A DNA stretch of 64,000 bases from an uncultured delta proteobacterium (GCA_963832165.1 CAWHTE010000001.1:83855-147854), one strand, 5' to 3'; positions 14 through 29,042 are shown, counted from the first letter of the stretch. Numbers and translations are program-made. The notes: generated from the sequence alone by a model not told the origin.

Positions 14-1585
14 CTACACAAGCGAGCGCGTCACGAACGAGCGGAGCGGCCAGTCGCCGCCCGCATCCTCGCCGAGCAGCGCGAGCGCATCGCGGCGCAC
101 GAGGTTGAACGTGCGCTCGGCCTGCTCGAGCGTCTCCTTCTGCGAGCGCGGCAGGCCGATCTGCGGCAGGAAGTCGATGTTCTCGAGCCCGTACGAGAAC
201 ACGCCGCGGTTGCTGCGGTAGTAGTCGCCCTGCTCGCGCAGCGTCTCCTCCACGCGGCCGAACAGGCCGCGAAGTTCTCCATCGCGCGCAGCACCAGGTT
301 GCGCAGGCGGAGCTGGCGTCGCAGCCAGCCCTCGTCGAGGTGCAGGTCGGTCATGAACGGCGCGACCCACAAGTTGTGGTAGGACGCGATGTCGAAATCC
401 CACTTGAGCCGCATCAGCTCGTACGAGCCGATCATTCCGTACAGGCCGCGGTACAGGCGCATCACCGCCTCGTGGCGGAAGTCGAGGAAGCGGTCGTAGA
501 GGTCGATCCGCTTCGCGAGCGCGTCGGCCGGCTCGCCGTCGGCCTCGCGCGCGACGATGTCGGTGATGAAGTCGCACTCGAGCGCGACGAAGTCGAGCCC
601 GGGGCTGTAGAGCGGGTCGGTCGCGGTCGCGCCCTCGCCGACGAGCGCCCAGCGCCCGTGTCCGAGGAAGCGCTTCGTGCCGTAGGCGATCCGCGCGAAG
701 CTGCCGTGATCGATCACCTTCGAGTCGGCGAGGATCTCGCGCAGCGCGCGGTGCCCGTCGAGGAACGCGCGGAACCCCTCCGGGCTGCGCACGACGCGAT
801 CGCGCGCGGGCGTTCCGACCACGCCGACGCTCGTGACCCCGCCGCGCAGCCGGATCAGCCACACCCAGTAGCCCGGGTTCAGGAAGTGGATCGTCGAGAG
901 CCCGCGCGTGGTGTGGCGCACGCGGCCGTGGAACGTCTCGTCGCTCGATCCGGTCGACGTCGGCGAGCCCCTCGAAGCGGCCCCACGCCGAGCCGATCAG
1001 GTGATGCGGCTCGGGCACGCGCAGGCCGAGCTGGCGCGCGAGCGTGCCCTGGCGCCCGGCCGCGTCGATCACCCAGCGCGGACGCACGCGCTCGGTGCCC
1101 GCGGGTGTCTCGACGGTGAGCTCGTGGCGCTTGCGACCCTCGCCCAGCGCGATCTCGGTGACGCGCGCGCCGATCCGCACCTCGATGCCCTCGCTGCGGC
1201 ACATCTCGATGAGGTCCGTCTCGAGCCGCGCGCGGTCGAGCTGGAACGCGGCGTGGAACGGCAGGTTGATCGTGCCGAGCTCGCTCATCTCGGTGAGCGG
1301 GGTGTTGCGCTTCGGGCCGTCGAAGAAATAGCGGATGCCGTTCTTCGGCAGGTGATTCTCGTACAGGTACTGCGCGAGCTTCTGGCGGCGCACGAGGTAG
1401 TGCGCCGCGATCTCGACGGTCGACTCGCCGACCTTGAACGCTCCCCCGCCGCCGCCGCGCTCGAACACGGTGATCGAGAGATCCGGCAGGCGCATGCGCA
1501 GCTGGCGCGCGAGCAGCGTGCCCGCGATGCCGCCGCCGACGATCGCGACATCGGGCCCTGCGCTGCGCCTTCGGCGCCGCTTCAC
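14..1585 (-). pseudogene. Flavin-dependent halogenase-like FAD monooxygenase (tryptophan-halogenase family); reading frame broken twice as assembled
   Basis: The start is GTG 1585 (GTGA overlap with the upstream stop at 1582). The N-terminal GxGxxG (VAIVGGGIAG) and KVGEST lie in the frame of ORF 14..2374. The middle part (NPGYWVWLIRL, TDPLYSPGL) lies in the frame of ORF 31..921. The C-terminal part (EETLREQGDYYRSNRGVF...) returns to the first frame. The junctions are at about 935-955 and 265-280. Confidence 0.75.
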
Positions 1586-2304
1586 AGCATCCCTCCGTTC
1601 ACCGAGATCACCTGTCCCGTAACATAGGACGCACCCTCGGAGAAGAGAAACGCCACCACGGCCGCGACCTCCTCGGGCCGTCCGAGCCGGCGCATCGGGA
1701 TCTGCGGCAGGAGCGGCTCCGCGGCTGCAGCGTCGACCATGTCGGTCTCGATCAGCCCGGGCGCGACGCAGTTCACGGTGATCTCGCGCTTCGCGAGCTC
1801 CTGCGCGAGCGACTTCACGGCGCCGATCAGGCCCGCCTTGGACGCGGCGTAGTTCACCTGCCCGCGGTTGCCGACGATTCCCGCCAGCGACGACATCGCG
1901 ACGATCCGCCCGCCGTCGTGCGCGCGCACCATCGGCATCACGATCGGGTGCAGCGTGTTGTAGAACCCGTCGAGGTTCGTGCGCAGCACGCGGTCCCAGT
2001 TTTCGCCCGAGAGCGACGGAAACGCCGCGTCCGCGCGGACGCCCGCGTTGTGGACGGCGCCCCAGAACGGCCCGTGCTCGGCGATCGCGCGCTCGAGCTC
2101 GCTGCGGCACGCGTCGCGGTCGGCCACGTCGCAACACAAGAGCGTCGCTTCGGCGCCGAGCTTGCGCACTTCGTCGGCGACGGCGCGCGCGGCCTCGTGC
2201 TGGCTGCGGTAGTGGATCGCCAGCGCGAAGCCCTGCTCGGCGAGCGCGAGCGCCACCGCGCGCCCGATCCCGCGGCTCGCGCCCGTCACGAGCACGCGCC
2301 TCAT
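1582..2304 (-). CDS. fabG: 3-oxoacyl-ACP reductase, SDR family (FabG-like ketoreductase of the polyene cluster)
   Basis: The start [15 protein letters not shown] contains the TGxxxGIG motif. The catalytic YAASKAG motif is present. There is an ATGA overlap with the upstream dehydratase stop (2301-2304). The start is in frame within ORF 1582..2598. Confidence 0.9.
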
Positions 2305-2756
2305 GCCGAGAATCTCGTGTGTCCGGAGAGGCCCGGCAGCACGTTGAGGCGAGCCTCGGCGAGCAGCTCGCCACCGGGCGCGTCGAACACCGCGCAGTCG
2401 AACGCGAGCAGCTCGCGGCGGCCCGCGGCGTGGCGGGCTGTCACCTCGAGGCGCTGTGCCGGGTCGAAGCCCGCGCAGTGGAACGTGACCCGGCGCGATC
2501 CGATCAAGAGCGCCGGCAGCTGCTCTTCGCCCCGCGCGCGCCTGCGCAGACTGCCGTCGGCGGCCGCGCACTGCGCCATGTACTCGAGCGCGATCCAAAC
2601 GGGCACGCGGCCGCTGGCGTCGCGAAACAGCGGGCTCTGCGACGGATTCACGCCGCAGCGCGTTCCGCCATCGTCGTGCCCGAGCACGCGCTCGAGCAGG
2701 CGCATCGCTCCGGCCTGGGGCAGCAGCTCGGCGATCGGCGGAAAGTCGCTCGTCAT
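2301..2756 (-). CDS. Hot-dog fold 3-hydroxyacyl-ACP dehydratase-like protein (APE-cluster type)
   Basis: This is the C-terminal 151 aa of the composite ORF 2301..5204 ([24 protein letters not shown]...). There are ATGA overlaps at both ends (2753-2756 and 2301-2304). Its position matches the dehydratase of APE/xanthomonadin loci. Confidence 0.7.
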
Positions 2757-3476
2757 GCCCGGCTCCACAGATCCGGCGCGCGCTGCAGCATGCCCCCGAT
2801 CAGGCGCAGATAGGCCCAGGCCAGGCGCGGATAGTCGCGCGCGAGGCTGAAGTGGGAGACGCCGTCGGGGGGGTAGATCACGCGCGTCGGCACCGTCGCG
2901 ATCGGGGTTCCGTGCCACACCAGTCGCACGGCGAACTCGGGCTCGAAGTCCATCCAATCGCCCGTCTGCGACGATTCGAGCACCGTCGAGCGCGGGTGCG
3001 AGCGGCACACCGCGGAATCCGCACAGAGGATCGGGCACCGCGCGCGAGAGACACGCGAGCCACACCAGCCCGCGCGACAGCTGGCGCGCGTAGATGCGCG
3101 CGAGCGGAGCGCTCGCGTCGAACTCGGGCACGCCGAGCACGAGCGCGTCCGGGTGCGCGCGGATCGCGGCGACGAAGCGCGACACGTCGCCCGTGTCGTG
3201 CTGAGCGTCGGCGTCGAGCTGCACCACGTGCGTGAAGCCGCTCGCTGCGGCGGCGCGGTAGCCGGTCTTGAGCGCGGCTCCCTTGCCGCCGTTGCGCGCG
3301 CGCCGGACGACAGTCGTGCTCGCGCGCGCGGCGGTCACGCGCTGCAACGCATCGCGCGTGGGCTGCGCGCTGCCGTCGTCGACGATCAGGCACGGAATGT
3401 CGGGAGGCAGCCCGGCCACGACCTTCTCGATGGTCGTCGGGTGGTCGAAGATCGGGATCAGGACGCAGATCTTCAT
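2753..3476 (-). pseudogene. Family 2 glycosyltransferase; one frame switch near 2980-2990 as assembled
   Basis: The N-terminal part MKICVLIPIFDHPTTIEKV...VDDGS...QLDADAQH...PLCGFRGVPLAPAL is in the frame of ORF 2301..5204. The C-terminal part LESSQTGDWMDFEPEFAVRLVWHGTPIATVPTRVIYPPDGVSHF is in ORF 2753..3010. There is an ATGA overlap with the ligase stop at 3473. Confidence 0.8.
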
Positions 3477-5221
3477 CGCCGGCGCTCCAGACGGCCGCGC
3501 CCGCTCGCGAACGATCGCTCGGCGCGGTCCGCGTCGCCGAGCGAGAAGCGGAAGCGGTCCGCGTCCTCGAGCGCGACGCGCAGCACCACCTCCTGTCCCG
3601 GCAGCAGCACGTCGTGGAACTTGAGCGCCTCGAGCGACGCGAGTACGGGCGCCTCGCCGAGCAGCTCTTCGAGCGCCTGCATCGCGAAGTGCACCTGCAC
3701 CGCCCCGGCGACCATGGGCGCGCCCGGGAAGTGTCCGTCGAGATGGGCCAGATCCCACGGGATGCGCAGGCGCATCTCGATCGCGTCGTCGGCGCGAGCG
3801 GTCGCGAGCAGCTCGGGCGCATCGGGCGGGGCGTCCGTGGCGAACAGCGCGCGCAGTGCTTCCTGGGTCACCTTGCCCTGCGCGTTGGTCGGCAACGCCG
3901 CCACGAAGCGCCACGCGCGCGGCACGAGCACGCGCTCGAAGTACGCGGCCAGATGCTCGGACAGCGCCTTCGCGAGCGCGCGGCGTCCGTCGGACGCCAC
4001 CGCGTCCCAGGCCGTGGCCGACGGCACCACGACCGCCGCCACGCGCGGCTCGAGGGCCAGCAGCACCGCGTCCTGCACGCTCGCGTGCGCGCGCAGCCGC
4101 TCCTCCATGTCGGGCAGTGAGAGGCGCTTCTCGCCGACCTTGATCACGCGGTCCGCGCGTCCGAGCAGATGAAACTCTCCGGTGTCGGTGAAGGACGCGC
4201 GGTCGCCGGTCACGAAGCGTTCGCGGCCGGTCGTGGCGGATTCGCCTGCGCTCACGAATGGCGATGTGATCGCGAGGCAGTCCGTCGCGGGATCGATGTC
4301 CGCCTCGACGCCGGGCATGAGCTGCCACGCTTCGTCGCCGCGCCGCTGCTGGCGCACCGCGGCGCCGCCCGTCTCCGTCGATCCGTACACCTCGATCGGC
4401 GCGTCGCCGAGCGTCTCGGCGGCGCGCAGCGCGAGGTCGGTCGCGAGCGGTCCTCCCGACGAGAAGATCGCGCGGCAGCTCGCGCGCCGCCGCGATAGCT
4501 CTCCGCGCTCCACGAGATGGCGCAGCGTGACCGGCGTCGTCACCACGGCGAACGGTACGTCGCCGCTCGAGTGTGGCGCGAGCTCCTCGGGGTGCAGCAC
4601 CGCGCTGCGCAGGAACGGCCGGCCGCTCGCGAGCGGCCACAACACGCGGAACAGCAGGCCGTAGAGGTGCTGGGGCGCGACGGTCGCGAGGATCCGCGCG
4701 TCGGGGCCGAGCTGCGCCGCGAAGCGCTGCTCGAGCACCGCGACCTCGTCCTCGAGGTGGCGCACCGCCTTCTCGATGCGCCGGCCCTCGCCGGTCGTGC
4801 CCGACGTGAACAGCACCGCGAGCGGCGCGTCGCGATCGAGTCGCACCGGGGGCTGCGCACCAGCCGCGCCCGCGGCCTCGAGCGGGTGCCAGCACGGCAG
4901 ATCGGAGAGCGCGTCGGGGGGATCTCCGTCGAACAACGCGCCGTGCACCTTCTGCGCGAGCTCGCGCAGCATCGCGGGCTGACGCGACGGTGCGAGCACC
5001 GCGCGGGCGCCCGTGTGCGCGATCGCGAGCAGCCCGACGGCGAATGCGTAGACGTCGTCGCAGTGCAGCAGGAGATCTCTGCCCTGGGCGGGCGACAGGC
5101 GCGCCGCGAGCGCGGCCACGTCGCGCCGCAGGTCCGCGTCGCTGCGCTCGCCCTCGCGGCCGAACGCCACGAGCCGGTCGCCGCGCGGCTCCGCCGCGAA
5201 CCAATGCGAGAGGCCGAGCAC
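3473..5221 (-). CDS. AMP-dependent synthetase/ligase fused to a C-terminal FabA/FabZ-type hot-dog domain (aryl or acyl:ACP ligase type)
   Basis: Adenylation motifs are present: LFTSGTTGEG, YGSTETGG, GDRASFTDTGEFHLLGRADRVIKVGEKR and NAQGKV. The C-terminal part carries LDGHFPGAPMVAGAVQ, a dehydratase His motif. Confidence 0.9.
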   Translation of the reverse strand: MLGLSHWFAAEPRGDRLVAFGREGERSDADLRRDVAALAARLSPAQGRDLLLHCDDVYAFAVGLLAIAHTGARAVLAPSRQPAMLRELAQKVHGALFDGDPPDALSDLPCWHPLEAAGAAGAQPPVRLDRDAPLAVLFTSGTTGEGRRIEKAVRHLEDEVAVLEQRFAAQLGPDARILATVAPQHLYGLLFRVLWPLASGRPFLRSAVLHPEELAPHSSGDVPFAVVTTPVTLRHLVERGELSRRRASCRAIFSSGGPLATDLALRAAETLGDAPIEVYGSTETGGAAVRQQRRGDEAWQLMPGVEADIDPATDCLAITSPFVSAGESATTGRERFVTGDRASFTDTGEFHLLGRADRVIKVGEKRLSLPDMEERLRAHASVQDAVLLALEPRVAAVVVPSATAWDAVASDGRRALAKALSEHLAAYFERVLVPRAWRFVAALPTNAQGKVTQEALRALFATDAPPDAPELLATARADDAIEMRLRIPWDLAHLDGHFPGAPMVAGAVQVHFAMQALEELLGEAPVLASLEALKFHDVLLPGQEVVLRVALEDADRFRFSLGDADRAERSFASGRGRLERRR

Positions 5222-5231
5222 GGCTACTCGC

Positions 5232-5519
5232 CTAAGCGTTCGCGCGGTCGGCCCCTGCGCGCTGGTCGGCCACGAACGCCGCGAGGCTCGAGACGGAAGC
5301 GAAGATTCTCTGGTTGCGCTCCGGATCGTCTTCGATCGCGACGCCGTAGCGCTCCTCGAGCGCCATGGCGAGCTCGAGTGCGTCGATCGAATCGAGTCCG
5401 AGCCCTTCGACGAAGAGCGGAGCGTCGGTCTCGATCTCCTCGGGCTGAACGTCTTCGAGCGCGAGCGCTTCGACGATCAGCTTCTTGATCTCGGCCTCGA
5501 GCCCACTAGCAGATGCCAC
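5232..5519 (-). CDS. Acyl carrier protein
   Basis: The protein is 95 aa with the phosphopantetheine site LGLDSIDALE. It overlaps the acyltransferase 3' end by 14 nt. Confidence 0.9.
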   Translation of the reverse strand: MASASGLEAEIKKLIVEALALEDVQPEEIETDAPLFVEGLGLDSIDALELAMALEERYGVAIEDDPERNQRIFASVSSLAAFVADQRAGADRANA

Positions 5520-6360
5520 GGTCCCACCTCTTCTCGAAATAGTCCTGGAGTGCGGCGGTCAGGCGCCGGGCGCCGGCTGACATCGATTCGCCCTCGCGCA
5601 GATGATCGGCGGGATGGATCGGGTCCCCCACCTCCACGCGCCATACCGGACACCGCTCGGGGACATCGGCGAACGCCTGTCCCTTCATCAGCGTGCGAGG
5701 GTGTACGCTGATCACGACCGGCACGATGTCACATCCCGCGAGCAGCGCAATCTGCGCGGCGCCGCGTTCGAAGGCGCGCAGGCCCTCGGGCGGCGTGCGC
5801 GAGCCCTCGGGATACACCACGAGGTTTCGCCCCGCGCGCAGGCGCTCGATCGCGTGGCGCACCATCACCGGACCGCGCTCGGCGCGCAGATAGCCCGCCC
5901 CCTCGACGCAGCGGCGCAGGAACGGGTTGTCGCCCCAGTCCGCGTTCACGATCAGATCGGCCTGGGGCATCACGCTGAGCAGGATCGGTGTGTCGATCAG
6001 CGAGGGATGGTTGGCCACCACGACGACCGGGCCCCTGCGAAGCGCCTCACCGCCGTGCACCGAGACGCGCGCCACGCCGCACGCATGGCTGAAGCGTACC
6101 CAGAGCCCCATCCCGCGATGGATCGCGTACTGCGCGCGCAGGTCGGTGCCGTGGCCTCGACCGCGCAGTCGCGCGGCGAGGCGTTGCAGTGGCAGCACGA
6201 TGAACCCGAGCGCGAGCGTGTCGAGCGCGAAGGTCGCGAAGCCGAGCGCCCGCAGCGCGACCCGCCACGGCCGGAACGGCGCGGCCGGGGTCGCTCGCAC
6301 GTTGGCCGACTTCGCATTTTCCTGAATCACTGTGGCCACTTGTGCGCGCAAGTCTATCAC
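5506..6360 (-). CDS. Lysophospholipid (1-acyl-sn-glycerol-3-phosphate type) acyltransferase
   Basis: The NHxxxxD motif (ANHPSLIDT) and the YPEGSRT motif are present. There is an N-terminal membrane helix. It is the first gene of the minus-strand operon. Confidence 0.85.
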   Translation of the reverse strand: MIDLRAQVATVIQENAKSANVRATPAAPFRPWRVALRALGFATFALDTLALGFIVLPLQRLAARLRGRGHGTDLRAQYAIHRGMGLWVRFSHACGVARVSVHGGEALRRGPVVVVANHPSLIDTPILLSVMPQADLIVNADWGDNPFLRRCVEGAGYLRAERGPVMVRHAIERLRAGRNLVVYPEGSRTPPEGLRAFERGAAQIALLAGCDIVPVVISVHPRTLMKGQAFADVPERCPVWRVEVGDPIHPADHLREGESMSAGARRLTAALQDYFEKRWDRGIC

Positions 6361-6429
6361 CCGGCGAATCGCGGTCGCAATCGAATACGGCCGGGCGCCG
6401 CACTGTCGCCGCGTTAGAATCCGCCCGTT

Positions 6430-7107
6430 TTGCGGCGATCTCCGGCCTCACACCGACGGTATCGATCGCGGGGCGCCGTGCGGATCGCGGCGCTGTGCGC
6501 GGGAGTGCTGCTCGCGCTGCCGGCGTCGGGCGAGCCGCCCGCGACGCTCGAGGCGCTGATGCAGGGCATGGCCGGGGCGCCGGGCGTGGTGGCCCGCTTC
6601 CGCGAGCAGAAGCAGCTCGCGCTGCTCTCCGAGCCGCTCGAATCGCGCGGCACGCTCTACTTCGTGCCGCCGAATCGGCTCAGCCGCGAGACGAGCGAGC
6701 CCAGCCAGACGCGGCTCGTGATCGACGGGGACCGCTTCTTCTTCCGGGACGCCGCCGGGAGCGAGGCGATGGATCTCTCCGCGAGCCCGATTGCGCGCGC
6801 GTACGTCAGCAACTTCATCGTGCTGTTCAACGGAGATCTCGCGGCGCTGCGCCAGCGCTACGAGCCACGCTTCACCGCCGACGCGAAGGGCTGGACGCTC
6901 GAGCTCGTGCCGCGCGCAAAGCGGCTGCGCGAGTTCATCGAGCGCGTGACGCTCGTGGGTCACGCGCGCACGCTCGACCGGATGGAGCTCGTCGAGGTGG
7001 GCGGCGACCGCACGACCACATGGTTCGAGGCGGTGCGCACCGATCGCGCGTTCAGCGACGAGGAGCTCGCGCAGATCTTTCGGAAGCCGTCCGCTCCCGT
7101 GCAATGA
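6430..7107 (+). CDS. LolA-like outer-membrane lipoprotein carrier protein (APE export type)
   Basis: A signal-like N-terminus AALCAGVLLALPASG is followed by a LolA-like body (RFREQKQLALLSEPLESRGTLYFVPPNRL). The true start may be GTG 6478. There is an ATGA overlap with the MMPL start. Confidence 0.75.
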   Translation: MRRSPASHRRYRSRGAVRIAALCAGVLLALPASGEPPATLEALMQGMAGAPGVVARFREQKQLALLSEPLESRGTLYFVPPNRLSRETSEPSQTRLVIDGDRFFFRDAAGSEAMDLSASPIARAYVSNFIVLFNGDLAALRQRYEPRFTADAKGWTLELVPRAKRLREFIERVTLVGHARTLDRMELVEVGGDRTTTWFEAVRTDRAFSDEELAQIFRKPSAPVQ

Positions 7108-9470
7108 GCGATCGCGCGATCCGCTGGCTGTTCGGGGTCGTGCTCGCCGCGCTCGGAGCGTGGACCGCGACGCACGTCGAGCTCTCCACGGACATCAGCC
7201 GCTTCATGCCGGCCGAGAGCGATGCCGAGCTGGCCTCGCTGGCGTCGCGGCTCTCGGACAGCGAGCTCACGCGCACGATGATCCTGACCGTGGGCGCGCC
7301 AGACCCCGTTGCGGCCGTGGCCGCCGCGCGCTCGCTCGCCGAGCGCCTGCGCGCGCACCCCGAGCTCGAGAGCGTGCGCAGCGGCGTCGACCCCGAGCAG
7401 CTCGAGGAGGTGTATCGGCTCTACTTTCCGCGCCGCCACGCCTTCGTCTCCGAGGATCCCGAGCGCGAGATCCCCGCGCTCGCGGCGCCCGACGCGCTGC
7501 GCCGGCGCGCGCGCGAGGTGCGCGAGAGCCTCGCGCTCCCGACCGCCGCGCTGACCAAGCGCCTCGCGACGAGCGATCCGATCGGCGCATTCGAGCGACT
7601 CGTCGGACGGCTGCGCAGCCAACGGCCGCCGCTCGACATGCTCGACGGCAGCTTCGTCACGCCCGACCACCGTTTCGCGGTGGTGTTCCTCACCACGCGC
7701 TCCTCCGCGTTCGACTCCGATCCGCAGGCGCGCCTGCTCGCGGACATCGACGCGGCGTTCGCAGAGATCGCGGGCGCGAGCTCTGCTCCGCTCGCGCTCG
7801 AGAAGAGCGGCGCGAACCGCTTCGCCGTGGCCGCCGAGGCCGGCATCCGGCGCGACATGAACTGGATCATCGCGGTGTCGTCGCTCGGCGTCGCGGTGGT
7901 GTTCATCGCGTTCCTGCGCTCGCTGCACTACTTCCTGCTCGTGGTGCTGCCCGCGGTGTCGGGAATCGTCGTCGCGACCGCGGTCACGCGGCTCGCGTTC
8001 GGGCGCATCGACGGTGTCACGATGGCGTTCGGCGCGTCGCTGATCGGCGTCGCGATCGACTACTCGATCCACGTGCTCGACCACCACGCGCTCGATCCGA
8101 GCGCCGAGATCCGCACGCTCGTGCGCAAGCTGCGCGCGTCGGTCGCAGTGGGCGGGCTCACCACGATGGCGAGCTTCGTCGGGCTCGCGTTGACCTCGTT
8201 CCCGGGCTTCCGCGAGATCGGTTTCTTCTCGACGGTGGGGATCGGCGTCTCGATCGCGGTGACGCTGTTCGTGCTGCCCGCGTTCCTGTCGGGCGAGCTG
8301 CCGGGGCGATCGGTTCCGCCGCTCGCCGCGCGCGTCTCGGGGGCGTTCGGCGACGCGGTGCGCGGGCTCGCGGCGCGCCCGCGCGTGCTCGCGCTCGTGC
8401 CGATCGCGTGCATCGCCGCGACGGCGGTGTTCGCGCCGCGGCTGGATTTCGACGACGACCTCACGCATCTCATGTCGCTCGATCCCGGGCTGCGCGCCGA
8501 GGAGGAGCGCGTGCGCGCGCGCGTCGCGCGCGAGGATTCCGGGCGCGTGATCTTCGCGCTCGGCGCCGACGCCGACGAAGCGGTCGCGCGCAACGACGCG
8601 GTGGCGGAGCGGCTCGCGGCCGCCCACGCGGCGGGGCGGATCGGCGAGTTCCGCTCGCTGCACGCGCTGCTCTGGTCGCGCGAGCTGCAGCAGCGCAACC
8701 TCGCCGCGCTCGGTGCGATCCCCGACCTCGCCGACCGCGTCGAGGCTGCGTTCGCAGCCGAGGGCTTTCGCGCGGAGGCGCTCGCGCCGTTCCGCGCCGC
8801 GCTCGCCGAGCCCGCGCCTGCGCCGCTCGACGCAGCGGCGCTGCGCGCCTCACCGCTGCGCGATCTCGTCGCGCCGCTGCTGCTCGATCTCGGCGACCAG
8901 GCGGCGGCCGTCACCTATCTGCGCGGGAGCTCCTCGGTCGAGCAGCTCGAAGGCGAGCTCGCGGGCCTCGAGCACGTACACGTGTTCGATCAGGGGCGAT
9001 TCGCGAACGCGATCTACCGCGAGTTCCGCATCACCACGATCGAGCAGATCGGCGTGGGCAGCGGCCTCGTCCTGCTCGTGCTCGCGCTCTACTACCGGCG
9101 CCTGCGGCCCGCGCTCGCGGCATTCCTGCCCTCGCTGCTGGTCGCGGGCGCCGTGGTTGCGGTGTTCGCGGCCGTCGGCGCGCCGATGAACCTCCTGCAC
9201 GTGACGAGCCTCGTGATGGTGATGGGCATGGGCGTCGACTACGGCGTGTTCCTCGTCGACAGCGCGCGCGACCGCAAGGAGCTCGACGGCACGCTCTTCT
9301 CGCTCTTCCTGTCCTGTCTCACCACGGTGTTCGTGTTCGGCACGCTCGCGATCTCCGAGCACACCGCGCTGCGCGCGATGGGCGCGACCACGGGCCTGGG
9401 CATCCTGCTCTCGTTCGCACTCGCGCCCGTGACGCTGTTGCTGTTGCCGCGAGCCGAGCGCACGCCGTGA
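7104..9470 (+). CDS. MMPL/RND-superfamily membrane exporter
   Basis: The start is ATG 7104, in frame inside ORF 6342..9470. The protein is 788 aa with two blocks of multiple TM helices separated by soluble loops, which is typical of the APE/xanthomonadin exporter. The upstream 254 codons of the ORF are Arg/Ala shadow sequence that overlaps the LolA-like gene. Confidence 0.85.
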   Translation: MSDRAIRWLFGVVLAALGAWTATHVELSTDISRFMPAESDAELASLASRLSDSELTRTMILTVGAPDPVAAVAAARSLAERLRAHPELESVRSGVDPEQLEEVYRLYFPRRHAFVSEDPEREIPALAAPDALRRRAREVRESLALPTAALTKRLATSDPIGAFERLVGRLRSQRPPLDMLDGSFVTPDHRFAVVFLTTRSSAFDSDPQARLLADIDAAFAEIAGASSAPLALEKSGANRFAVAAEAGIRRDMNWIIAVSSLGVAVVFIAFLRSLHYFLLVVLPAVSGIVVATAVTRLAFGRIDGVTMAFGASLIGVAIDYSIHVLDHHALDPSAEIRTLVRKLRASVAVGGLTTMASFVGLALTSFPGFREIGFFSTVGIGVSIAVTLFVLPAFLSGELPGRSVPPLAARVSGAFGDAVRGLAARPRVLALVPIACIAATAVFAPRLDFDDDLTHLMSLDPGLRAEEERVRARVAREDSGRVIFALGADADEAVARNDAVAERLAAAHAAGRIGEFRSLHALLWSRELQQRNLAALGAIPDLADRVEAAFAAEGFRAEALAPFRAALAEPAPAPLDAAALRASPLRDLVAPLLLDLGDQAAAVTYLRGSSSVEQLEGELAGLEHVHVFDQGRFANAIYREFRITTIEQIGVGSGLVLLVLALYYRRLRPALAAFLPSLLVAGAVVAVFAAVGAPMNLLHVTSLVMVMGMGVDYGVFLVDSARDRKELDGTLFSLFLSCLTTVFVFGTLAISEHTALRAMGATTGLGILLSFALAPVTLLLLPRAERTP

Positions 9471-9929
9471 CGTCGAGCGCTCGCGTCGCCGCGCTCGCTG
9501 CGTTCGCGCTCGGCTGCGCCGCGTTCCCGCTCGCGGCTCCGCCGCGGATCGCCGACTGCGGCGGGCCGCTGCTCTCGACCGCCGAGATTCCGGGCGGGAA
9601 CTTCCGGCTGCGCGAGCGCGTACGGATCGCGGGCGGCGGCGTCGACCTCGCGCTCGAAGTGCTCGCGGAGCGGCGCGCGGATCGCCTGGTCGTCGTCGCG
9701 TTCAACGAGTTCGGGGCGCCGGGTGTTCTCTGCGGTGCAGAGCGGACTCGAGGTCGAGACCGAAACGAAGCTCGGCCGCGCGCTCGCGGTGTCGCCCGAG
9801 AACGTGCTGCGCGATCTGCACGAGGCGCGGTTCTTCCACCCGGAGTCGGGCGAGCGGACCGTCGTGCGCAGGACCGGCTGCGACTACAGCGCCACGTTCG
9901 TGCGCGTCGAGCGCCGGCCGCTGCGCTGA
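9467..9929 (+). pseudogene. Small lipoprotein (DUF3261-like, APE cluster associated); +1 G in run 9719-9723 as assembled
   Basis: The start is GTG 9467 (GTGA overlap with the MMPL stop). A lipobox FALGC is present. ...VVVAFNEFGAP lies in the frame of ORF 7160..10015, then VFSAVQSGLEVETE... lies in ORF 9723..9929. Deleting one G restores APVFSAVQ. Confidence 0.65.
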
Positions 9930-9950
9930 GCTCCGACCGGGGTCGGAGCT
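9929..9950 (+). terminator. Stem-loop directly after the export operon stop
   Basis: AGCTCCGACC/GGTCGGAGCT forms a near-perfect inverted repeat of 8-9 bp effective stem around CCGG. It begins at the last base of TGA 9927-9929 and is followed by GGTCTGGATT. Confidence 0.5.
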
Positions 9951-18164: not shown

Positions 18165-18396
18165 CGCCACTTCGAGAAGAGCCAGAGCGCGACGGAGAGC
18201 ACGGCGCTCACGAGCGGTCTGCTCGCAATGCACGACCGAGGGAGCCCACATGGGTGAGCATATGGCTCCTCGCCAGCGCTTGCGGTCGCTGAAGAGATTT
18301 GGTGCGCTGTATTGCTTCGAGGCAGAAGATCTGGGTGGCCTCCGCGTCGACTAACGTCTAATGGCGACGACTAATGCACAATTTATCGACGGCCTA

Positions 18397-18425
18397 TTGA
18401 TCCGAGTGGATCATCGCCCTAATCT
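18397..18425 (+). promoter_or_regulatory. Candidate sigma70-type promoter of the transposase gene
   Basis: TTGATC (18397-18402) is followed by a 17-nt spacer and TAATCT (18420-18425). The ATG lies 8 nt downstream, which would give a near-leaderless transcript. Confidence 0.3.
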
Positions 18426-18433
18426 ACACTTCG

Positions 18434-19117
18434 ATGCGTCGTGTAGCGGAACAGCTCGAGCTAGATCCGGTCCGACATGGGGGTCGAAGACCGAGCGCCG
18501 GGCGGAAGGCAGGGCCGAATCCGCGCATTCGACATCGGTCGCGAGGCGCGTTTGCGCATCGCGTTCCTTGTCACGTGACTTTGAAGGTCCGCGAAGGGAT
18601 TCCGTCGCTGCGCACCGTCCGACTCGTGCGCGAGCTCGAGCGTAGCTTTGCCGCCAGCTGCGAGCGGAACGACTTTCGGCTGGTCCACTATTCGATCCAG
18701 GGAAACCATGCGCACCTGATCGTCGAAGCGGACAGCGAAGCTGCACTCGGCCGCGGGATGAAGGCGATCGGTTCACGGCTCGCTAGATCAGTGAACCGCG
18801 TCTTCAGGCTTTCAGGACCGGTCCTGGCCGATCGGTATCACCTGCACGTGCTCCGCACGCCGCGCGAGGTGCGAAATGGGCTCGCTTACGTGCTGTTGAA
18901 CACACGTCGGCACGCCCCGAGGGCCGGCCGCACGCTTTCGCGTGCGTACGGAATCGATCCCGCGTCGTCGGGGCGCTGGTTCGATGGATGGAGCCGTCCA
19001 TGCGGCGCCGCCGGACCCTCGAGTCCTGCACCTACCGCCTTGCCACGAAGCTGGTTGCTCGCGGTAGGATGGAGACGAGCCGGACTCATCGATCCAGACG
19101 CGATTCCGGGACGCTGA
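18434..19117 (+). CDS. IS200-like / REP-associated tyrosine transposase (Y1 HUH family)
   Basis: The HUH motif is present in YSIQGNHAHLIVEA. The catalytic Tyr region is NGLAYVLLN. The N-terminal part PCHVTLKVREGIPSLR is typical of this family. Confidence 0.8.
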   Translation: MRRVAEQLELDPVRHGGRRPSAGRKAGPNPRIRHRSRGAFAHRVPCHVTLKVREGIPSLRTVRLVRELERSFAASCERNDFRLVHYSIQGNHAHLIVEADSEAALGRGMKAIGSRLARSVNRVFRLSGPVLADRYHLHVLRTPREVRNGLAYVLLNTRRHAPRAGRTLSRAYGIDPASSGRWFDGWSRPCGAAGPSSPAPTALPRSWLLAVGWRRAGLIDPDAIPGR

Positions 19118-19145
19118 CGCCGTTCTGGTTCGATCCGCGGCCCCG

Positions 19146-19168
19146 GCCGGCCGTTCCGCCCGGCCGGC
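19146..19168. terminator. GC-rich hairpin between convergent genes
   Basis: GCCGGCCG (19146-19153) pairs with CGGCCGGC (19161-19168) across a 7-nt loop. It sits between the transposase stop (19117) and the ligase stop (19213). Confidence 0.35.
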
Positions 19169-19212
19169 GGTCCCTTTCCTCAAAGCAAAACAGCCGAACG
19201 CGCGGCAGGTAG

Positions 19213-20628
19213 CTACCGCTGCACCTTCCCGGTCGTCGTGCGTGCGAGCGAGTCGACGATCCGGAACTCGCGCGGAACCTTGTAGGCGGGCAGTGCAGCG
19301 CGGCACGCGGCGATCAGCGCCGCGCGCGCGGGCGCGCGCTCGGGATCCTCGGCGACGATCTCGGCGACCGGAATCTCGCCGAGCCGCTCGTGCTCGCGCG
19401 AGAACACGCGGCACTCGCGCACGCCCGGAACGGCCGCGATCACGTCCTCCACCTCTTCGCAGAAGAACTTCATGCCGGCCATGTTGATCCGGTTGTGGCG
19501 CCGGCCCGCGAGGAAGAGCGTGCCGTCGGCGTCGAAGAAGCCCTGATCGCCGGTGCGGAAGCCGTCGGGCTCGAGCAGCCGCGCCGACGGCGTCCACGGC
19601 GAGAGATAGGCGTCGAACAGGCCCGGCCCGCGGATGCAGATCTCGCCCGTGCGCTCGGGAGAGCCGGGGCCGAGGATCGGCTTCCCTTCGTCGTCGCGCA
19701 GCCACACGTCGTAGGCGGGCAGCGGACGGCCTAGCGCGGTCGGCTTGCTCTCGGACTCGGAGCTGTTGAGCACGGGCAGCCCGACCTCGATGATGCCGAG
19801 CGCCTGGGCCAGTGCGAGGCCGAAGCGCGCGCGGAAGCCCGCGGCGATCTCCGCGCGCAGACCCTCGGCCGTGGAGATCGCGAGGCGCACGTCGAGCCCG
19901 ATCTCCGACGCATCCTTCGCGAGCAGCGAGTAGTGGAACGGCGACGCGTACGAGAGCGTCGCGCGCTCGCGCTGCGCGAACTCGAGTACGGGCCGCGCGA
20001 GCGAGCTCGCGGGCAAGAGGATCGTCGCCCCGAAGCGCAGGTAGAGCAGGATCGACACCACGAAGTGGTGGGCCATCGGCAGGAGCCACAGGATCCGGTC
20101 GTCGGGACCGATCGCGAGCGCCTGGTTCGCGGCGATCAGCCGCTCCGCGATCCGCGCGTGCGACAGCACCACTCCCTTGCGCTCGCTCGTGGTGCCCGAG
20201 GTGAAGCGCAGATACGCCGGGTCGAGTGCGCGGAACTCCCGCTCTTCGCGCAGCGCGCCGGGCCACGGCCGACACGTGAATCCGTCGTCCTCCGCGACGA
20301 GGCGCTGGAGCTGCGCCGCGTCGGCGAATCGATCGCGCGCGGCGCCGGCCGCGTCGTCGGGGATCGGCACGAGACAGCCACCCGCGGCCAGGATCGCGAG
20401 CGCGTGCTCGATGAAGCCCTCGCCCTGCCGCGCGACGAGACCGCAGCGCTCGCCGCGCGCGAGGCCCGCGGCGCGCAGCCGCGCTGCACCCGCGTCGAAG
20501 CGCGCGACCAGCTCGGCGTAGGAGGTCACCTGCGTCGCCCCCCCGTGATCCGCGCACAGCGCAGGGTGATCCGGGTGCGCGCGTGCGTGGGCGCGGATCG
20601 CGTCGATCGGGGCGGCGGGCGGGCTCAC
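19213..20628 (-). CDS. AMP-dependent acyl-CoA/acyl-ACP synthetase (adenylate-forming enzyme)
   Basis: The start is GTG 20628 (GTGA overlap with the upstream stop at 20625). Motifs FTSGTTSERKG, GDQGFFDADGTLFLAGRRHNRINMAGMKF and TTGKVQR are present. The remaining N-terminal part of ORF 19213..21255 is shadow sequence. Confidence 0.85.
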   Translation of the reverse strand: MSPPAAPIDAIRAHARAHPDHPALCADHGGATQVTSYAELVARFDAGAARLRAAGLARGERCGLVARQGEGFIEHALAILAAGGCLVPIPDDAAGAARDRFADAAQLQRLVAEDDGFTCRPWPGALREEREFRALDPAYLRFTSGTTSERKGVVLSHARIAERLIAANQALAIGPDDRILWLLPMAHHFVVSILLYLRFGATILLPASSLARPVLEFAQRERATLSYASPFHYSLLAKDASEIGLDVRLAISTAEGLRAEIAAGFRARFGLALAQALGIIEVGLPVLNSSESESKPTALGRPLPAYDVWLRDDEGKPILGPGSPERTGEICIRGPGLFDAYLSPWTPSARLLEPDGFRTGDQGFFDADGTLFLAGRRHNRINMAGMKFFCEEVEDVIAAVPGVRECRVFSREHERLGEIPVAEIVAEDPERAPARAALIAACRAALPAYKVPREFRIVDSLARTTTGKVQR

Positions 20629-21923
20629 GGAAGCGGATAGCCGTCGGCCTGGGCCAGGATCCGCTCGCGCACGTGCTCGGGATCCACCGACGCGAGCTGG
20701 GTGTTCTCGCGCGCGGCGAGCGCGGCGGCGATGCCGATCGCCTCGCCCGTGGCGAGCGCCGTGCCGATCACGCGCAGCGCCCCGAGCGCCTCGTGAGTGG
20801 CGGACAAACAGCGACCCGCCATCCCCAGCATCGGGGCGCTCTTCGAGACGAGCGCGCCGAGCGGCACCGAGCACGGACCCTGTGGATACTCGTAACGCGG
20901 GCGGCGGTGATCTTCCCAGAGCTCGATCGGCCACGAGGACAGCGCGACCTCTTCGCGAAAGCGCCGGCCCTCGAGCACGTCCTCGCGCGACAGCTCGATG
21001 CGTCCGATCGCGCGGCGCGTCTCGCGGATCCCGACGCGCGCGGGCCAGTCGGCGACGCGCGCGGCGGCGAACCCGGGCCGCGACGTGCGCAGGAACCCCA
21101 CCACCTGCCGCGCCCAGTCGTACGCGCGCACGCGCAGCGCGGCGAGATAGTCGGGATCGAGCGGCTCGAACGGCCGGCCTGCGAGCGGCGGAATCGTGAG
21201 CGTCGCGTAGAGCGAGCCGGGACGGACGTCGCCGCGCACCACGAGCGACTCGCATTCGGGCGGGAGCCCGCCGCTACGAGCTGCGTGCGCCACCGACGAC
21301 GACAGGCGCAGCCGCTCGAAACCTGCGAACGCCTCGCCCACCACGCCCTCGAGCCGGAAGATGAACGACGGGCGCTGCAGGATCCTGCCCTCGGCCATCG
21401 CGGTTTCGGCGCCGCCGAGCGATGCCGCGGCCGCTTCGCCGCTCGTGTCGATCACCACGCGCGCCTCGAGCGCGTCGGTGCCCGAGGGCCCGCGCAGCGA
21501 GAGCTGCGACGCGCGCCGCGAGCTCTGCGCGAGCTCGGCGCCGACCAGTGCCGTGCGCGTGCGCACGATCAGGCCCGGCGTCTTTGCGCACGTCTGCGCG
21601 GCGAGCTCCGCGAACACGGGCGGGCGGATCGGCAGATAGCGCACGCGTCCCGCGACCTCGGGGTCGCCGGCACCGCCCGCGCGCGCGAGCGCCTCGGCAA
21701 AGCGCGAGGGCAGGCCGGGATGGATGAGCTGCGGATAGTCGGTGTCCTGGAGGTAGAGGCCGCAGATCGTGTGTACGAGCGCGTGGGTAGCGTTGCCGCC
21801 CAGCGCGGGATCGCGCTCGACGAGCACCGTCGCCGCGCCCGACGCGGAAGCCGCGAGCGCCGCGGCGATGCCGGCGGGCCCGCCGCCCACCACGGCCACA
21901 TCGCAGTGTGCTGCGCCCGTCAA
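20625..21923 (-). CDS. FAD-dependent oxidoreductase (FAD_oxidored type)
   Basis: The start is TTG 21923 (TTGA overlap with the upstream stop at 21920). The dinucleotide-binding motif VAVVGGGPAGIAAALAAS is present, and the C-terminal part carries RVIGTALATGEAIG. Confidence 0.75.
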   Translation of the reverse strand: MTGAAHCDVAVVGGGPAGIAAALAASASGAATVLVERDPALGGNATHALVHTICGLYLQDTDYPQLIHPGLPSRFAEALARAGGAGDPEVAGRVRYLPIRPPVFAELAAQTCAKTPGLIVRTRTALVGAELAQSSRRASQLSLRGPSGTDALEARVVIDTSGEAAAASLGGAETAMAEGRILQRPSFIFRLEGVVGEAFAGFERLRLSSSVAHAARSGGLPPECESLVVRGDVRPGSLYATLTIPPLAGRPFEPLDPDYLAALRVRAYDWARQVVGFLRTSRPGFAAARVADWPARVGIRETRRAIGRIELSREDVLEGRRFREEVALSSWPIELWEDHRRPRYEYPQGPCSVPLGALVSKSAPMLGMAGRCLSATHEALGALRVIGTALATGEAIGIAAALAARENTQLASVDPEHVRERILAQADGYPLP

Positions 21924-23278
21924 CCGAGCAGATCCGCTGCGAGCTGATCGCGAAACACCTCGAGCTCGCCGGGTCGCCACGCATCGCGCTGACGCACATG
22001 CGTGTAGCCGACGCGGCCCGCGTGGAACGCGAGCACGAGCGCGCTGCCGGGCGACGCCGGAACCGAGGGCACGCCGAAGCCGTCTTCGATCGGAGCCCCG
22101 AAGAAGCTCTCGAGCCCGGGACAGAACTCGCCCGTGTATGCGAAGAAGAACGAGCACAGCTCGCCGCCGAGCGGGCGGCGCGCGAGGGTCCCGTACAAGC
22201 GGCTCGGCGCGAGACGCGCGAAGTCCATCGCCGCGACCCCGTTCTCGATCTGGCCGCTTCGGATCGCGCGCCGGCGCTGCTCCTTGAGCTCCCCGAGCAG
22301 CGCAGCGAGATCGTCGACGCACGGGGTCGGTACCTGGAACCAGAGCAGCGACACGCGCGTGCGGAAGATCGCGCCGTCGCTGCCCTTGGGCCGCAGATTC
22401 ACGGGCAGCGGCACGACGTAGCTCGCCGGCACCGTTCCGCGCCGGCGCATCACGGCGTGGTGTGCGCGGATCGCCGCGCCCAGATAGAAGATCATCGGCG
22501 TGAGGAAGCCCGCGAGCTCACGCGCGCGCTTCAGGATCTGCACGCTGTCGGCGCGGCTCATGTGATGGCGCGAAACCGTGAGGTCCTGGCGCGCGCCGTG
22601 TTCGGGTCCCGCCGGTGAGCACACGGGCAGGCGTCCGAGCCCGTTCATCCAGCGCTGCCACTCCATGGCCATGTTGCCGCGCTCGCTCGAGCGTTCGGGC
22701 AGCTCGACGTCGGGCGGCGCACCGGGCCGATCGGCCGCGGGCACCGCATCGGGTGCGCGCGTGCCCGCACCGCACTCGGCCAGGAACTCGACGAAACGCT
22801 CGCTGCCCCAGCCGTCGAAGAGCATGTGCAGCCACGTGAGTGCGAGATCGGTGTGGCCGTTCGCATAACGCACGGCGTCTGCGCGCAGGAGGCCCGCGCG
22901 GCCATCGGGGTGCAGCTCGTTCAGCCGCTCGGAAAAGAGCTCCGGGAGCACGGCGGGGGCATCCCAATCGCCCGGAGGCGCGCCGCGCGACTCGTGCAGC
23001 TCGAACGTGGGTCCGGCCGCGCGCGCGGCGAGATCGAGTCGATACTCGGCGAGTCCGACGACCGCACGGCGGCGGATCGGCGCTCGCAGGATCGGGTTCG
23101 CCTCCACCACCTCGCGCAGAACGCGCTCGAACGTGTCGGGCGCGAAGCCGGGACCGAGCCGGAGCACGATCTGGGACAGATGATTGGCGCGGTTCCGGCG
23201 CCGCGTCTCGGCGTCGAACGCGAGCAGGAAGGCGTCGGCCCCGGTCAACGGGAGCCGGTCATTCGCCGCGCGAAACAT
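21920..23278 (-). CDS. Condensation-domain / WS-DGAT-like acyltransferase
   Basis: The protein is 452 aa. The active-site-like motif WLHMLFDGWG matches the HHxxxDG class. It overlaps the upstream ACP stop by 20 nt. Confidence 0.7.
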   Translation of the reverse strand: MFRAANDRLPLTGADAFLLAFDAETRRRNRANHLSQIVLRLGPGFAPDTFERVLREVVEANPILRAPIRRRAVVGLAEYRLDLAARAAGPTFELHESRGAPPGDWDAPAVLPELFSERLNELHPDGRAGLLRADAVRYANGHTDLALTWLHMLFDGWGSERFVEFLAECGAGTRAPDAVPAADRPGAPPDVELPERSSERGNMAMEWQRWMNGLGRLPVCSPAGPEHGARQDLTVSRHHMSRADSVQILKRARELAGFLTPMIFYLGAAIRAHHAVMRRRGTVPASYVVPLPVNLRPKGSDGAIFRTRVSLLWFQVPTPCVDDLAALLGELKEQRRRAIRSGQIENGVAAMDFARLAPSRLYGTLARRPLGGELCSFFFAYTGEFCPGLESFFGAPIEDGFGVPSVPASPGSALVLAFHAGRVGYTHVRQRDAWRPGELEVFRDQLAADLLG

Positions 23279-23528
23279 ACTCGTGGATCGAGGCGGCCAG
23301 CGTCTCGGCCGTCTCCAGATTCTCCGGGGTGAGCAGGCTCTCGTCGGCCCAGACGCCGGTGGCCTCTTCGATCGCGAGCATGAGCTGGGTGACGGCGAGC
23401 GAGTCGAGCCCCGACTCGATCAGGTTCGATTTCGGCGTGAGATCGGGCGCCGACGCGAGCAGATCGTCGCGCAGGATCCGATGGATCAGATCCGTGAGCT
23501 TCTCGCGTGTCCAGCCGTTCACACTCAT
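23259..23528 (-). CDS. Acyl carrier protein (second ACP)
   Basis: This is the 89-aa C-terminal part of ORF 23259..24281, beginning MSVNGWTREKL. The phosphopantetheine site is SGLDSLAVTQL. Confidence 0.8.
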   Translation of the reverse strand: MSVNGWTREKLTDLIHRILRDDLLASAPDLTPKSNLIESGLDSLAVTQLMLAIEEATGVWADESLLTPENLETAETLAASIHEYVSRGE

Positions 23529-23624
23529 CCCGAAAGCAATGTAGGCGAGCGCTGGATCGGTTGCAGGGTGCAAGCGGCCGAAGGCCGCGCGCAGCGAGGC
23601 GAAGCCGAGCGAAGACCAGAAGGC

Positions 23625-26532: not shown

Positions 26533-26982
26533 ATGATGGTGATCCGACTTTCGAACACGCTTGCCGCCGGTCTCGCCGCAATGGGACTCGTGCTGGGCTC
26601 GGGCGCGCTGCTCTCCGGCTGCAAGTCGAGCGAGGCTGGTGCGCCGGCACAAGCGACGCCCGCCGCCGAGAAGCCGGCTGCGCCCGCGAAGGCCGAGCCC
26701 TCGAAGGCCACGACGGCGCCGGCACCCTCGGGCAGCCCGCTCTCGAAGGTCGCCACGAACATGTCGCCCGAGCAGGTGCAGGAGGTCATGGGATCGCCGA
26801 CCGGTCAGGCGAGCTACCCCACGGGCAAGACTTTCAATCCCTACAACTTCGGGAACGACAGCGGCAACCGCGTCGAGTACAAATACAAGGGTGAGGGCCG
26901 CGTCGTCTTCGCCGTTCCGAAGTGGGGAGGCAACATGAAGGTGGTGCGCGTCGATTACGACCCGGCTGAAGACGGCAACTGA
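26533..26982 (+). CDS. Lipoprotein with SmpA/OmlA (BamE-like) domain
   Basis: A strong SD (GGGGGAGGGAAGAG) is present. The lipobox is LLSGC. A Pro/Ala linker is followed by MSPEQVQEVMGSP...YKYKGEGRVVF. Confidence 0.75.
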   Translation: MMVIRLSNTLAAGLAAMGLVLGSGALLSGCKSSEAGAPAQATPAAEKPAAPAKAEPSKATTAPAPSGSPLSKVATNMSPEQVQEVMGSPTGQASYPTGKTFNPYNFGNDSGNRVEYKYKGEGRVVFAVPKWGGNMKVVRVDYDPAEDGN

Positions 26983-27002
26983 GCTTCGGCGCCCCCCCGC
27001 CG

Positions 27003-29009: not shown

Positions 29010-29042
29010 TCCAGTAGCATCGGTTTTCCGACGGAGGTTTGG

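Follow-up and report, generated by a model that had tools for sequence, protein, structure and literature searches.

A probable aryl-polyene-family lipid-pigment gene cluster with a flanking ketosynthase pair in an uncultured high-G+C bacterium

The stretch of 64,000 nucleotides analysed here, referred to as the window, comes from an uncultured delta proteobacterium (GCA_963832165.1, CAWHTE010000001.1:83855-147854, in short C1:83855-147854) and opens, between positions 14 and 9950, with two divergent operons which the initial annotation took for the core of an aryl-polyene (APE) or xanthomonadin-type lipid-pigment locus. No ketosynthase (KS) or chain-length factor (CLF) gene had been seen anywhere in the window, and the locus raises the question of how a polyene chain would be elongated there and whether its genes make an aryl pigment at all. 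Searches of the 64 kb with a KS query (tblastn) and with the profile PF13723 do come back empty, and the first of the two explanations offered at the time, that the missing genes lie to the left of position 1, turns out to be true: extension in that direction reveals an ApeO-type KS and an ApeC-type CLF at -5962..-4044, where negative coordinates denote the same contig C1 left of window position 1. With ketosynthases on the flank and good BLASTP likeness to the Ape proteins of Escherichia coli CFT073, the aryl-polyene reading is supported and needs extension rather than correction. Judged by homology and gene order, the region 14-9950 is very probably the central part of a lipid-pigment biosynthetic gene cluster (BGC) of the APE family, a type II polyketide system resembling fatty acid synthase (FAS).

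The source is a metagenome-assembled genome (MAG) of 11 contigs and 5.5 Mb with ~70% G+C, which is 89% complete with 2% contamination. Owing to the G+C content spurious open reading frames (ORFs) are abundant in the window; genes were called with a tracker of third-position GC and codon usage and then by homology to Pfam and NCBIfam profiles. The reference for BLASTP is the apeA-apeR region of E. coli CFT073, and intact orthologues from the relative L005 were substituted for frameshifted genes. The comparative set consists of the source genome and 40 relatives (41 genomes), in which co-occurrence was assessed by Fisher test on raw counts regardless of phylogeny. Public labels of genomes of the same genus conflict, L001/G005 being filed as "Myxococcota bacterium" and both L002/G006 and L003 as "uncultured Spirochaetales"; with a G+C content of 70-72% Myxococcota is presumably the better fit. 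Aryl-polyene BGCs have already been reported from Myxococcota MAGs by antiSMASH (PMC11821767).

The elongation genes left of the window are arranged as follows:

-5962..-4779, plus strand: ketosynthase, ApeO-type (NF006618, 422.7 bits, exceeding the cut-off of 407)
-4778..-4044, plus strand: CLF-like protein, ApeC-type (PF13723, 159 bits), directly after the KS gene

The KS carries the Cys/His/His motifs, is 44-45% identical to E. coli ApeO (E = 1e-101) and matches chain A of PDB entry 6QSP with 271 bits, and the CLF is 30% identical to E. coli ApeC (E = 3e-22) and matches chain B of the same entry with 74 bits. 6QSP is the ApeO-ApeC heterodimer of Xenorhabdus doucetiae (PMC8358021). The best PDB matches overall are the chains of 6QSP, for the KS and CLF, and of 6QSR, the Xenorhabdus ApeI:ApeP complex, for the ApeI-like and ApeP-like dehydratases described below. 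By tblastn and PF13723 the pair (C1:77.9-79.8 kb) is the sole one of cluster type in the genome; the other KS matches, on contig C3, are ~34% identical and housekeeping-like. The second, FabB-like ketosynthase ApeR was not found in this 89% complete genome, the ApeR query matching only the ApeO-type KS at 28-31% identity. The lack of ApeR can be tolerated, since in vitro ApeO-ApeC makes the full-length polyene by itself (PMC8358021), and xanthomonadin-type clusters likewise have one KS (PMC3691225). The pair varies in form between relatives: KS and CLF are fused into proteins of 644-655 aa in L006 (L006:20226-21767) and L007 (L007:17137-19104) and are separate abutting genes here and in L005. 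In G008, a relative from the same family, a second KS directly follows the CLF gene (G008:C111:38422-39240); it is 31% identical to the ApeO-type KS and may be an ApeR-like helper.

The minus-strand operon at the left end of the window supplies most of the remaining assembly enzymes:

5506-6360, minus strand: lysophospholipid acyltransferase (LPLAT), ApeD-like (PF01553, 74.5 bits)
5232-5519, minus strand: acyl carrier protein (ACP), ApeE-like (NF006617, 104.8 bits, exceeding the cut-off of 70)
3473-5221, minus strand: ApeH-like adenylating enzyme fused to an ApeI-like dehydratase, 582 aa (PF00501 and PF22818)
2753-3476, minus strand: GT2 glycosyltransferase, frameshifted at ~2986 (PF00535)
2301-2756, minus strand: ApeP-like hot-dog dehydratase (PF22817, 23.8 bits, below the cut-off of 27)
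1582-2304, minus strand: ketoreductase, ApeQ/FabG2-type (TIGR01831, 349 bits, exceeding the cut-off of 338.85; NF004200, 364 bits)
14-1585, minus strand: halogenase-like flavoenzyme of ~523 aa in three frame pieces (matches to the CmlS halogenase profile split over the frames)

Pfam and NCBIfam bear out the gene content that had been proposed for all ten core genes of the two operons, and the four 4-nt overlaps of start and stop codons are where they had been placed, GTGA at 1582 and ATGA at 2301, 2753 and 3473 on the minus strand. The plus-strand operon is likewise coupled, its overlaps being ATGA at 7104 and GTGA at 9467. The ketoreductase is 54% identical to E. coli ApeQ (E = 9e-96), the acyltransferase 36% identical to ApeD (E = 8e-27) and the ACP 50% identical to ApeE (E = 1e-26), which ApeF also matches weakly (E = 4e-5); a second ACP, at 23259-23552 in a linked module, is not an evident ApeF orthologue. 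The fusion protein resembles ApeH over residues 2-460 (32% identity, E = 2e-52) and ApeI over residues 491-580 (28%, E = 2e-7). Its C-terminal domain (residues ~490-580) exceeds the PF22818 cut-off of 28.5 with 29.4 bits, and 6qsr_A is the best PDB match to residues 488-576 (E = 2e-5). The best NCBIfam model of the ligase, the 4-coumarate-CoA ligase TIGR02372, reaches 102 bits and is below its cut-off of 334.7. The same ligase-hot-dog architecture is found in >1000 database proteins, a few of which are also fused to an ApeP-like domain. The free ApeP-like dehydratase matches 6qsr_B (33.6 bits, E = 4e-7) and is 32% identical to E. coli ApeP (E = 2e-12), and both members of the ApeI-ApeP dehydratase pair are thereby represented. 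The GT2 is homologous to residues 8-242 of E. coli ApeJ, the N-terminal half of that protein (42-43% identity, E = 2e-63), and the best NCBIfam match of the GT2, the polyprenyl-phospho-GalNAc synthase PpgS, is far under cut-off. Orthologues of the flavoenzyme are intact in L001 and L005 (519-535 aa), to which the pieces in the window are 87-91% identical, and all three proteins retain GGGIAG, the FKVGEST lysine and the variant WVWLIR. Because the intact orthologues share it, WVWLIR, with Arg replacing Pro, reads as a lineage trait and not as damage.

The divergent operon encodes a predicted export system:

~6430-7107, plus strand: LolA-like periplasmic carrier, ApeL-like (PF03548, PF19574; signal-peptide-like N-terminus)
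7104-9470, plus strand: MMPL/RND-type exporter, ApeM-like (PF03176; HpnN and HAE3 family matches)
9467-9929, plus strand: small DUF3261-like lipoprotein in the ApeN position, with a lipobox-like ALGC, frameshifted at ~9719
9930-9950, plus strand: hairpin GCTCCGAC-CGGG-GTCGGAGC with a perfect 8-bp GC-rich stem, directly after the operon's last stop codon

The exporter is 24% identical to E. coli ApeM (E = 5e-29) and the LolA-like protein 25% identical to ApeL (E = 4e-9); the latter scores 67.6 bits with LolA2_flexi, below the cut-off of 125. The intact L005 orthologue of the lipoprotein passes the DUF3261 cut-off of 22.3 with 25.2 bits, and the exporter is thus found together with companions of the ApeL/ApeN kind, as expected of an APE transporter. 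The hairpin at the end of the operon had been called strong. Its perfect 8-bp stem is present, while its stability is unexceptional at this G+C content (z = -1.5, with 16 of 200 shuffles folding equally well). Its reading as a canonical intrinsic terminator is unsupported: it has no U-tract and is missed by a terminator scan. A search of the divergent intergenic region for a sigma-70-like promoter found none.

Taken over the whole cluster, homologues of 12 of the 18 Ape proteins of E. coli CFT073 are present, namely ApeC, D, E, G (weak), H, I, J (the GT2 half), L, M, O, P and Q. The APE core set is defined as the KSs apeO/R, the ACPs apeE/F, the CLF apeC, the dehydratases apeI/P, the ketoreductase apeQ and the transporter apeM (10.1101/2020.12.19.423268), and all of these are found here except ApeR and a clear ApeF. 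The comparative set ties the ketosynthases to the core operon. The ligase-hot-dog fusion is encoded in 21 of the 41 genomes, including five of the six other genomes of the same genus, and a PF13723 CLF accompanies it in 20 of these 21, the exception being a 71%-complete MAG (20/1/6/14 for both, ligase only, CLF only and neither; Fisher p = 1.4e-5). In 12 genomes the two are 3-19 kb apart on one contig. The long contigs L005 (78% identical), L006 (79%) and L007 (59%) have one layout in common, DUF3261-MMPL-LolA <> LPLAT-ACP-ligase/ApeI-GT2-(LipA-AT)-ApeP-FabG-flavoenzyme-membrane protein-(DUF3556)-KS/CLF, and the architecture including the KS-CLF pair is also found in G031 and G008. In the source genome, the interval between the core operon and the KS-CLF pair is filled by three genes:

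-802..~-130, minus strand: ApeG-like membrane protein, frameshifted at ~-216 (23% identity to ApeG, E = 7e-6)
-2545..-627, minus strand: DUF3556 membrane protein, split
-3993..-2546, minus strand: phytoene-desaturase-like flavoprotein, split

In the source genus, and also in L005 and L006, the DUF3556 and desaturase-like genes separate the ApeG-like gene from the KS-CLF pair.

The cluster does not end at position 9950, and further genes within the window belong to it:

19213-20628, minus strand: second AMP-ligase (Pfam), second module
20625-21899, minus strand: FAD_oxidored protein (Pfam), second module
21920-23278, minus strand: 452-aa protein without family
23259-23552, minus strand: ACP2 (Pfam), second module
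23622-24899, plus strand: Trp-halogenase-like flavoenzyme (PF04820, 91.9 bits)
24913-26430, plus strand: CrtI-family desaturase-like enzyme (PF01593; TIGR02734, 201 bits, below cut-off)
26979-28551, plus strand: aromatic amino-acid ammonia-lyase, a 4-methylideneimidazole-5-one (MIO) enzyme, frameshifted at ~27568 (PF00221 split over profile positions 1-162 and 165-465)
29028-29807, plus strand: UbiE-like methyltransferase (NCBIfam/Pfam)
29849-30880, minus strand: aromatic-type O-methyltransferase (NCBIfam/Pfam) with weak likeness to ApeB (26% identity, E = 3e-7)

Pfam, NCBIfam and PDB searches with the 452-aa protein gave nothing but a faint match to the Condensation family (E = 0.014); the protein is conserved in the second module of G031, G005 and L009. 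The second module is contiguous with the core in G031 and adjoins it in L007, and the cluster comes with as many as three halogenase-like enzymes. In G031, which belongs to a different family, all modules are contiguous within ~23 kb in the order membrane protein-flavoenzyme-FabG-ApeP-(gap)-GT2-ligase-ACP, lyase-LolA-MMPL, lig2-FADox-452aa-ACP2 and Trp-halogenase-CrtI-KS-CLF, the Trp-halogenase-like and CrtI-like genes being directly upstream of the KS-CLF pair. Since the modules are contiguous there, core, lyase, second module, halogenase/CrtI genes and KS-CLF pair form one BGC, which is much larger than 14-9950. The methyltransferase genes are syntenic in G005. Inserted between the modules here and in L006/L009 are genes for a Legionella_OMP-type porin, an SbmA-like ABC protein, an MOSC protein, a hydrolase and an ABC importer fused to a halogenase. 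The source genome alone has a further insert of ~1 kb at 18165-19212, which separates the second ligase operon from the hydrolase gene; in L009 the gap at this place is only 32 bp.

The ammonia-lyase is an integral part of the cluster and the candidate supplier of the aryl starter. Lyase and ligase fusion occur together across the 41 genomes (19/2/3/17 in the order used above, Fisher p = 1.1e-6), and the lyase gene is 0.6-1.7 kb from the ligase gene in nine other genera and 15-22 kb away in the source genus. The intact orthologue in G005 has 535 aa. The MIO triad lies in GASGDL, and in our alignment motif 2 reads "NNQDKVSMG" with the Gln typical of tyrosine or phenylalanine ammonia-lyases (TAL/PAL) in place of the Glu of histidine ammonia-lyase (HAL). 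The Watts selectivity switch, located by alignment to the RsTAL H89F structure 2O78, is occupied by Phe-His. The protein is under the HutH cut-offs, its C-terminal part best matches the BagA/FevW tyrosine ammonia-lyase model, and its two pieces score 101 and 189 bits with the flexirubin model NF053541 (FlxA), whose cut-off is 700. For FlxA of Chitinophaga TAL activity is proven; its motif 1 is atypical and its motif 2 of the TAL/PAL type, and according to its authors the specificity of such lyases is unpredictable from sequence (PMC3992019).

Put together, these parts suggest a pathway in which the lyase would form an aryl-acrylic acid by removing ammonia from an aromatic amino acid, probably Tyr or Phe. 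By homology to ApeH, the adenylation domain of the ligase-dehydratase fusion would then load this acid onto the ApeE-like ACP. Parsimony favours a starter of the coumarate or cinnamate type. The KS-CLF pair, homologous to ApeO and ApeC, would extend the starter with malonyl units, after which the ApeQ-type ketoreductase would reduce the beta-keto groups and the ApeI-like domain and ApeP-like enzyme would dehydrate the products. As no enoyl reduction would follow, a conjugated polyene is predicted. The halogenase-like flavoenzymes and methyltransferases may decorate the ring, and by analogy with ApeD and ApeJ the LPLAT protein and the GT2 may join the acyl chain to a glyco- or phospholipid anchor. 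Transport of the resulting lipid to the outer membrane would fall to the MMPL, LolA-like and DUF3261 proteins of the divergent operon.

Compared with the ape clusters of E. coli CFT073 and X. doucetiae, the source cluster has in common the KS:CLF and ApeI:ApeP-type pairs, the LolA/MMPL/DUF3261 export trio and the local gene orders D-E-H-I-J and L-M-N. It differs from them in the fusion of ApeH to ApeI, in its halogenase-like flavoenzymes, in the KS-CLF pair that stands convergent at the far end, and in ApeR, ApeK and ApeA, which they have and it does not. A similar fusion in Acinetobacter baumannii is suggested by the wording 'ApeH-Nt' (PMC8358021). Unlike the E. coli cluster it has one ACP in the core operon and no acyltransferase half of ApeJ, and whereas the E. 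coli pathway is proposed to take 4-hydroxybenzoate from ubiquinone biosynthesis as its starter, the source cluster encodes an ammonia-lyase. Hallmarks of xanthomonadin-type clusters are a single KS with a CLF-like partner, a GT2 resembling dolichyl-phosphate mannose (DPM) synthase and a halogenase gene (PMC3691225, PMC3949708). The source cluster has all of these, the halogenase activity being predicted. By the published descriptions of clusters from Xanthomonas, Lysobacter enzymogenes (ORF1-17) and Azoarcus (arc), the single KS and CLF-like protein compare with ORF17/ORF16 and ArcK/ArcJ, and further shared parts are two hot-dog dehydratases, a ketoreductase, an AMP-ligase, an ACP, an acyltransferase and a LolA protein with an exporter (PMC3691225, PMC3949708). 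In xanthomonadin-type clusters a XanB2-type chorismatase supplies 3- or 4-hydroxybenzoate; no candidate for such an enzyme is present among the annotated ORFs from -16 to +37 kb, no dedicated genome-wide XanB2 search having been made, and in the source cluster the conserved aromatic ammonia-lyase would provide the starter instead. Additional to the xanthomonadin-type set are the ACP2/452-aa/FAD_oxidored/ligase module and the CrtI-like genes, and such clusters have been described from Proteobacteria, to which the host lineage does not belong. With the flexirubin clusters of Chitinophaga pinensis (flxA-flxY) and Flavobacterium johnsoniae it shares a cluster-encoded ammonia-lyase, here the candidate source of an aryl-acrylate starter, polyene assembly of the type II FAS-like kind, a LolA-like protein, a glycosyltransferase and an exporter. 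The flexirubin clusters differ in having a free 4-coumarate-CoA ligase, FlxY, instead of an ACP-loading ligase of ApeH type fused to a dehydratase, and several KSs instead of one KS-CLF pair. By gene content the closest architecture is therefore xanthomonadin-type and the closest priming logic that of the flexirubin clusters; the type can be described as apparently lyase-primed like the latter, with a single KS-CLF pair and halogenase like the former, and without ApeR.

Several points weigh against this assignment. Besides ApeR, BLASTP finds no homologue of ApeK (thioesterase) or ApeA and no match to ApeN among the cluster proteins, PF22817 stays under its gathering score and the ApeI, ApeL and ApeG likenesses are weak. 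The Phe-His pair of the lyase fits none of TAL (His-Leu), PAL (Phe-Leu) and HAL (Ser-His), and the pigment product and the substrates of ligase and lyase are predictions. No KS was found in the same-genus MAG L001/G005, which is 71% complete. E. coli ApeJ (L014:41212-42888) is a fusion of GT2 and a Lip_A-type acyltransferase which appears as two genes in L005 (L005:11827-13679), L007, L002, G031 and G008; the acyltransferase half is absent from the source locus as it is from L006 and L001, and L001 is also without the GT2. Finally, the single-base indels in the cluster could be real, in which case this copy would be inactive.

There are seven such indels relative to intact orthologues, five of them 1-nt insertions and two deletions:

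~2986, GT2: +1 nt
~945, flavoenzyme: +1 nt
~269, flavoenzyme: -1 nt
~9719, DUF3261 lipoprotein: +1 nt
~27568, lyase: +1 nt
~-5799, KS: -1 nt
~-216, membrane protein: +1 nt

As sequenced, three of the ten core genes (GT2, flavoenzyme and lipoprotein) are not intact. If the frameshifts were real, these three along with the KS and lyase genes would be pseudogenes of a decaying cluster and no pigment would be made. This is unlikely, although the frameshifts are concentrated here, the tracker counting 4 in 16 kb, to which comparison with orthologues adds more, against a 95th percentile of 3, which places the cluster region in the top few percent of 16-kb windows. The 4.2-kb rpoB gene is intact, the indels lie outside long homopolymers, and the ~1-kb insertion absent from L009, which is of insertion-sequence (IS) size, splits the extended cluster. 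On the other hand, there are no in-frame stops and no other damage: the shifted pieces keep 87-91% amino-acid identity and coding-type third-position GC and carry no nonsense mutations. Neighbouring genes outside the cluster are affected too, near 11790, 15555 and 32260, and the excess of insertions over deletions is typical of long-read consensus error, whereas bacterial mutation is usually deletion-biased. Genome-wide the tracker finds 248 candidate frameshifts (0.45 per 10 kb) in a patchy distribution that includes other dense regions, and the nearest related long-read contig, L006, has similar split genes. The patchiness points to faults of assembly or polishing that are local; an assembly uniformly ridden with errors is ruled out by the intact rpoB and the patchy candidates. 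Assembly error in a long-read MAG is by a wide measure the likeliest cause of the indels. They show no clear shared methylation-type motif, the context being loosely CG or GCG. The other patches, at C2:0-36 kb, C3:344-368 kb and C7:244-268 kb and 920-944 kb, hold up to 10 candidates per 16 kb, same-strand and without stop codon, where the genome median is 0. The shift near 32260 concerns a 2,4-dienoyl-reductase-like gene (31318-33308, minus strand), whose Pyr_redox_2 and old yellow enzyme (OYE; Oxidored_FMN) ORFs form one ORF of 1150 aa in G005, and looks like another of the same kind. The locus carries a practical warning on both counts, as the edge of the window kept the ketosynthases out of view, and genes broken by local assembly indels can be mistaken for pseudogenes.

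Very improbable is a non-aryl lipid. On this reading the substrate of the ligase would be a fatty acid, either ordinary or hydroxylated, the LPLAT, GT2 and MMPL proteins would serve to remodel or export a membrane glycolipid, and the likeness to APE clusters would come from shared FAS-like parts only. LPLAT, GT2, LolA and MMPL proteins are generic lipid-handling parts, the specificity of the ligase is predicted from sequence only, no KS is near the operon in L001/G005, and known APE lipids also bear a non-aryl conjugated C26:5 acyl chain (10.1101/2020.12.19.423268). Such a lipid would not account for the ApeO/ApeC-type KS-CLF pair that accompanies the operon in 20 of 21 genomes, nor for the aromatic ammonia-lyase adjacent to it in most genera or the aromatic-type O-methyltransferase and up to three halogenase-like enzymes of the cluster; moreover, the lack of an enoyl reductase leads one to expect a polyene and the best matches throughout are Ape proteins. 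A flexirubin cluster proper, in which the polyene is esterified to a dialkylresorcinol instead of being anchored to a glyco- or phospholipid, is equally improbable: the lyase-type priming known from FlxA of Chitinophaga and the partial matches to the NCBIfam models FlxA, FlxB and LolA2_flexi point that way, whereas these equivalogs score well under their cut-offs (FlxB 258 against 340, LolA2_flexi 67.6 against 125, the FlxA pieces 101 and 189 against 700), there is one KS-CLF pair against the five KSs listed for Chitinophaga, whose cluster description mentions no halogenase genes (PMC3992019), and no DarA/DarB-like or KAS III gene is present among the annotated ORFs from -16 to +37 kb, no genome-wide darA/darB search having been made.

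No BGC family is regarded as more widespread among Gram-negative bacteria than the aryl-polyene clusters, whose products give protection against oxidative stress. An APE-family cluster at this locus adds little in principle and indicates that the family exists in mosaic form in an uncultured high-G+C lineage, where flexirubin-style priming by a lyase appears to be combined with a xanthomonadin-style single KS-CLF pair and halogenase and with a four-gene ACP/ligase module. Tentatively, and with the odds rather against it, the cluster may represent a distinct APE subtype that is lyase-primed and possibly multiply halogenated, and whose conserved extra module, here taken to comprise ACP2, the condensation-like 452-aa protein, the FAD_oxidored protein, the second ligase and CrtI-like desaturases, would build or attach a second, possibly desaturated, acyl chain. 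If so, its product would be an outer-membrane lipid structurally unlike the aryl-polyene lipids (APELs), the xanthomonadins and the flexirubins. The uncharacterised four-gene module itself travels with the cluster across an order.

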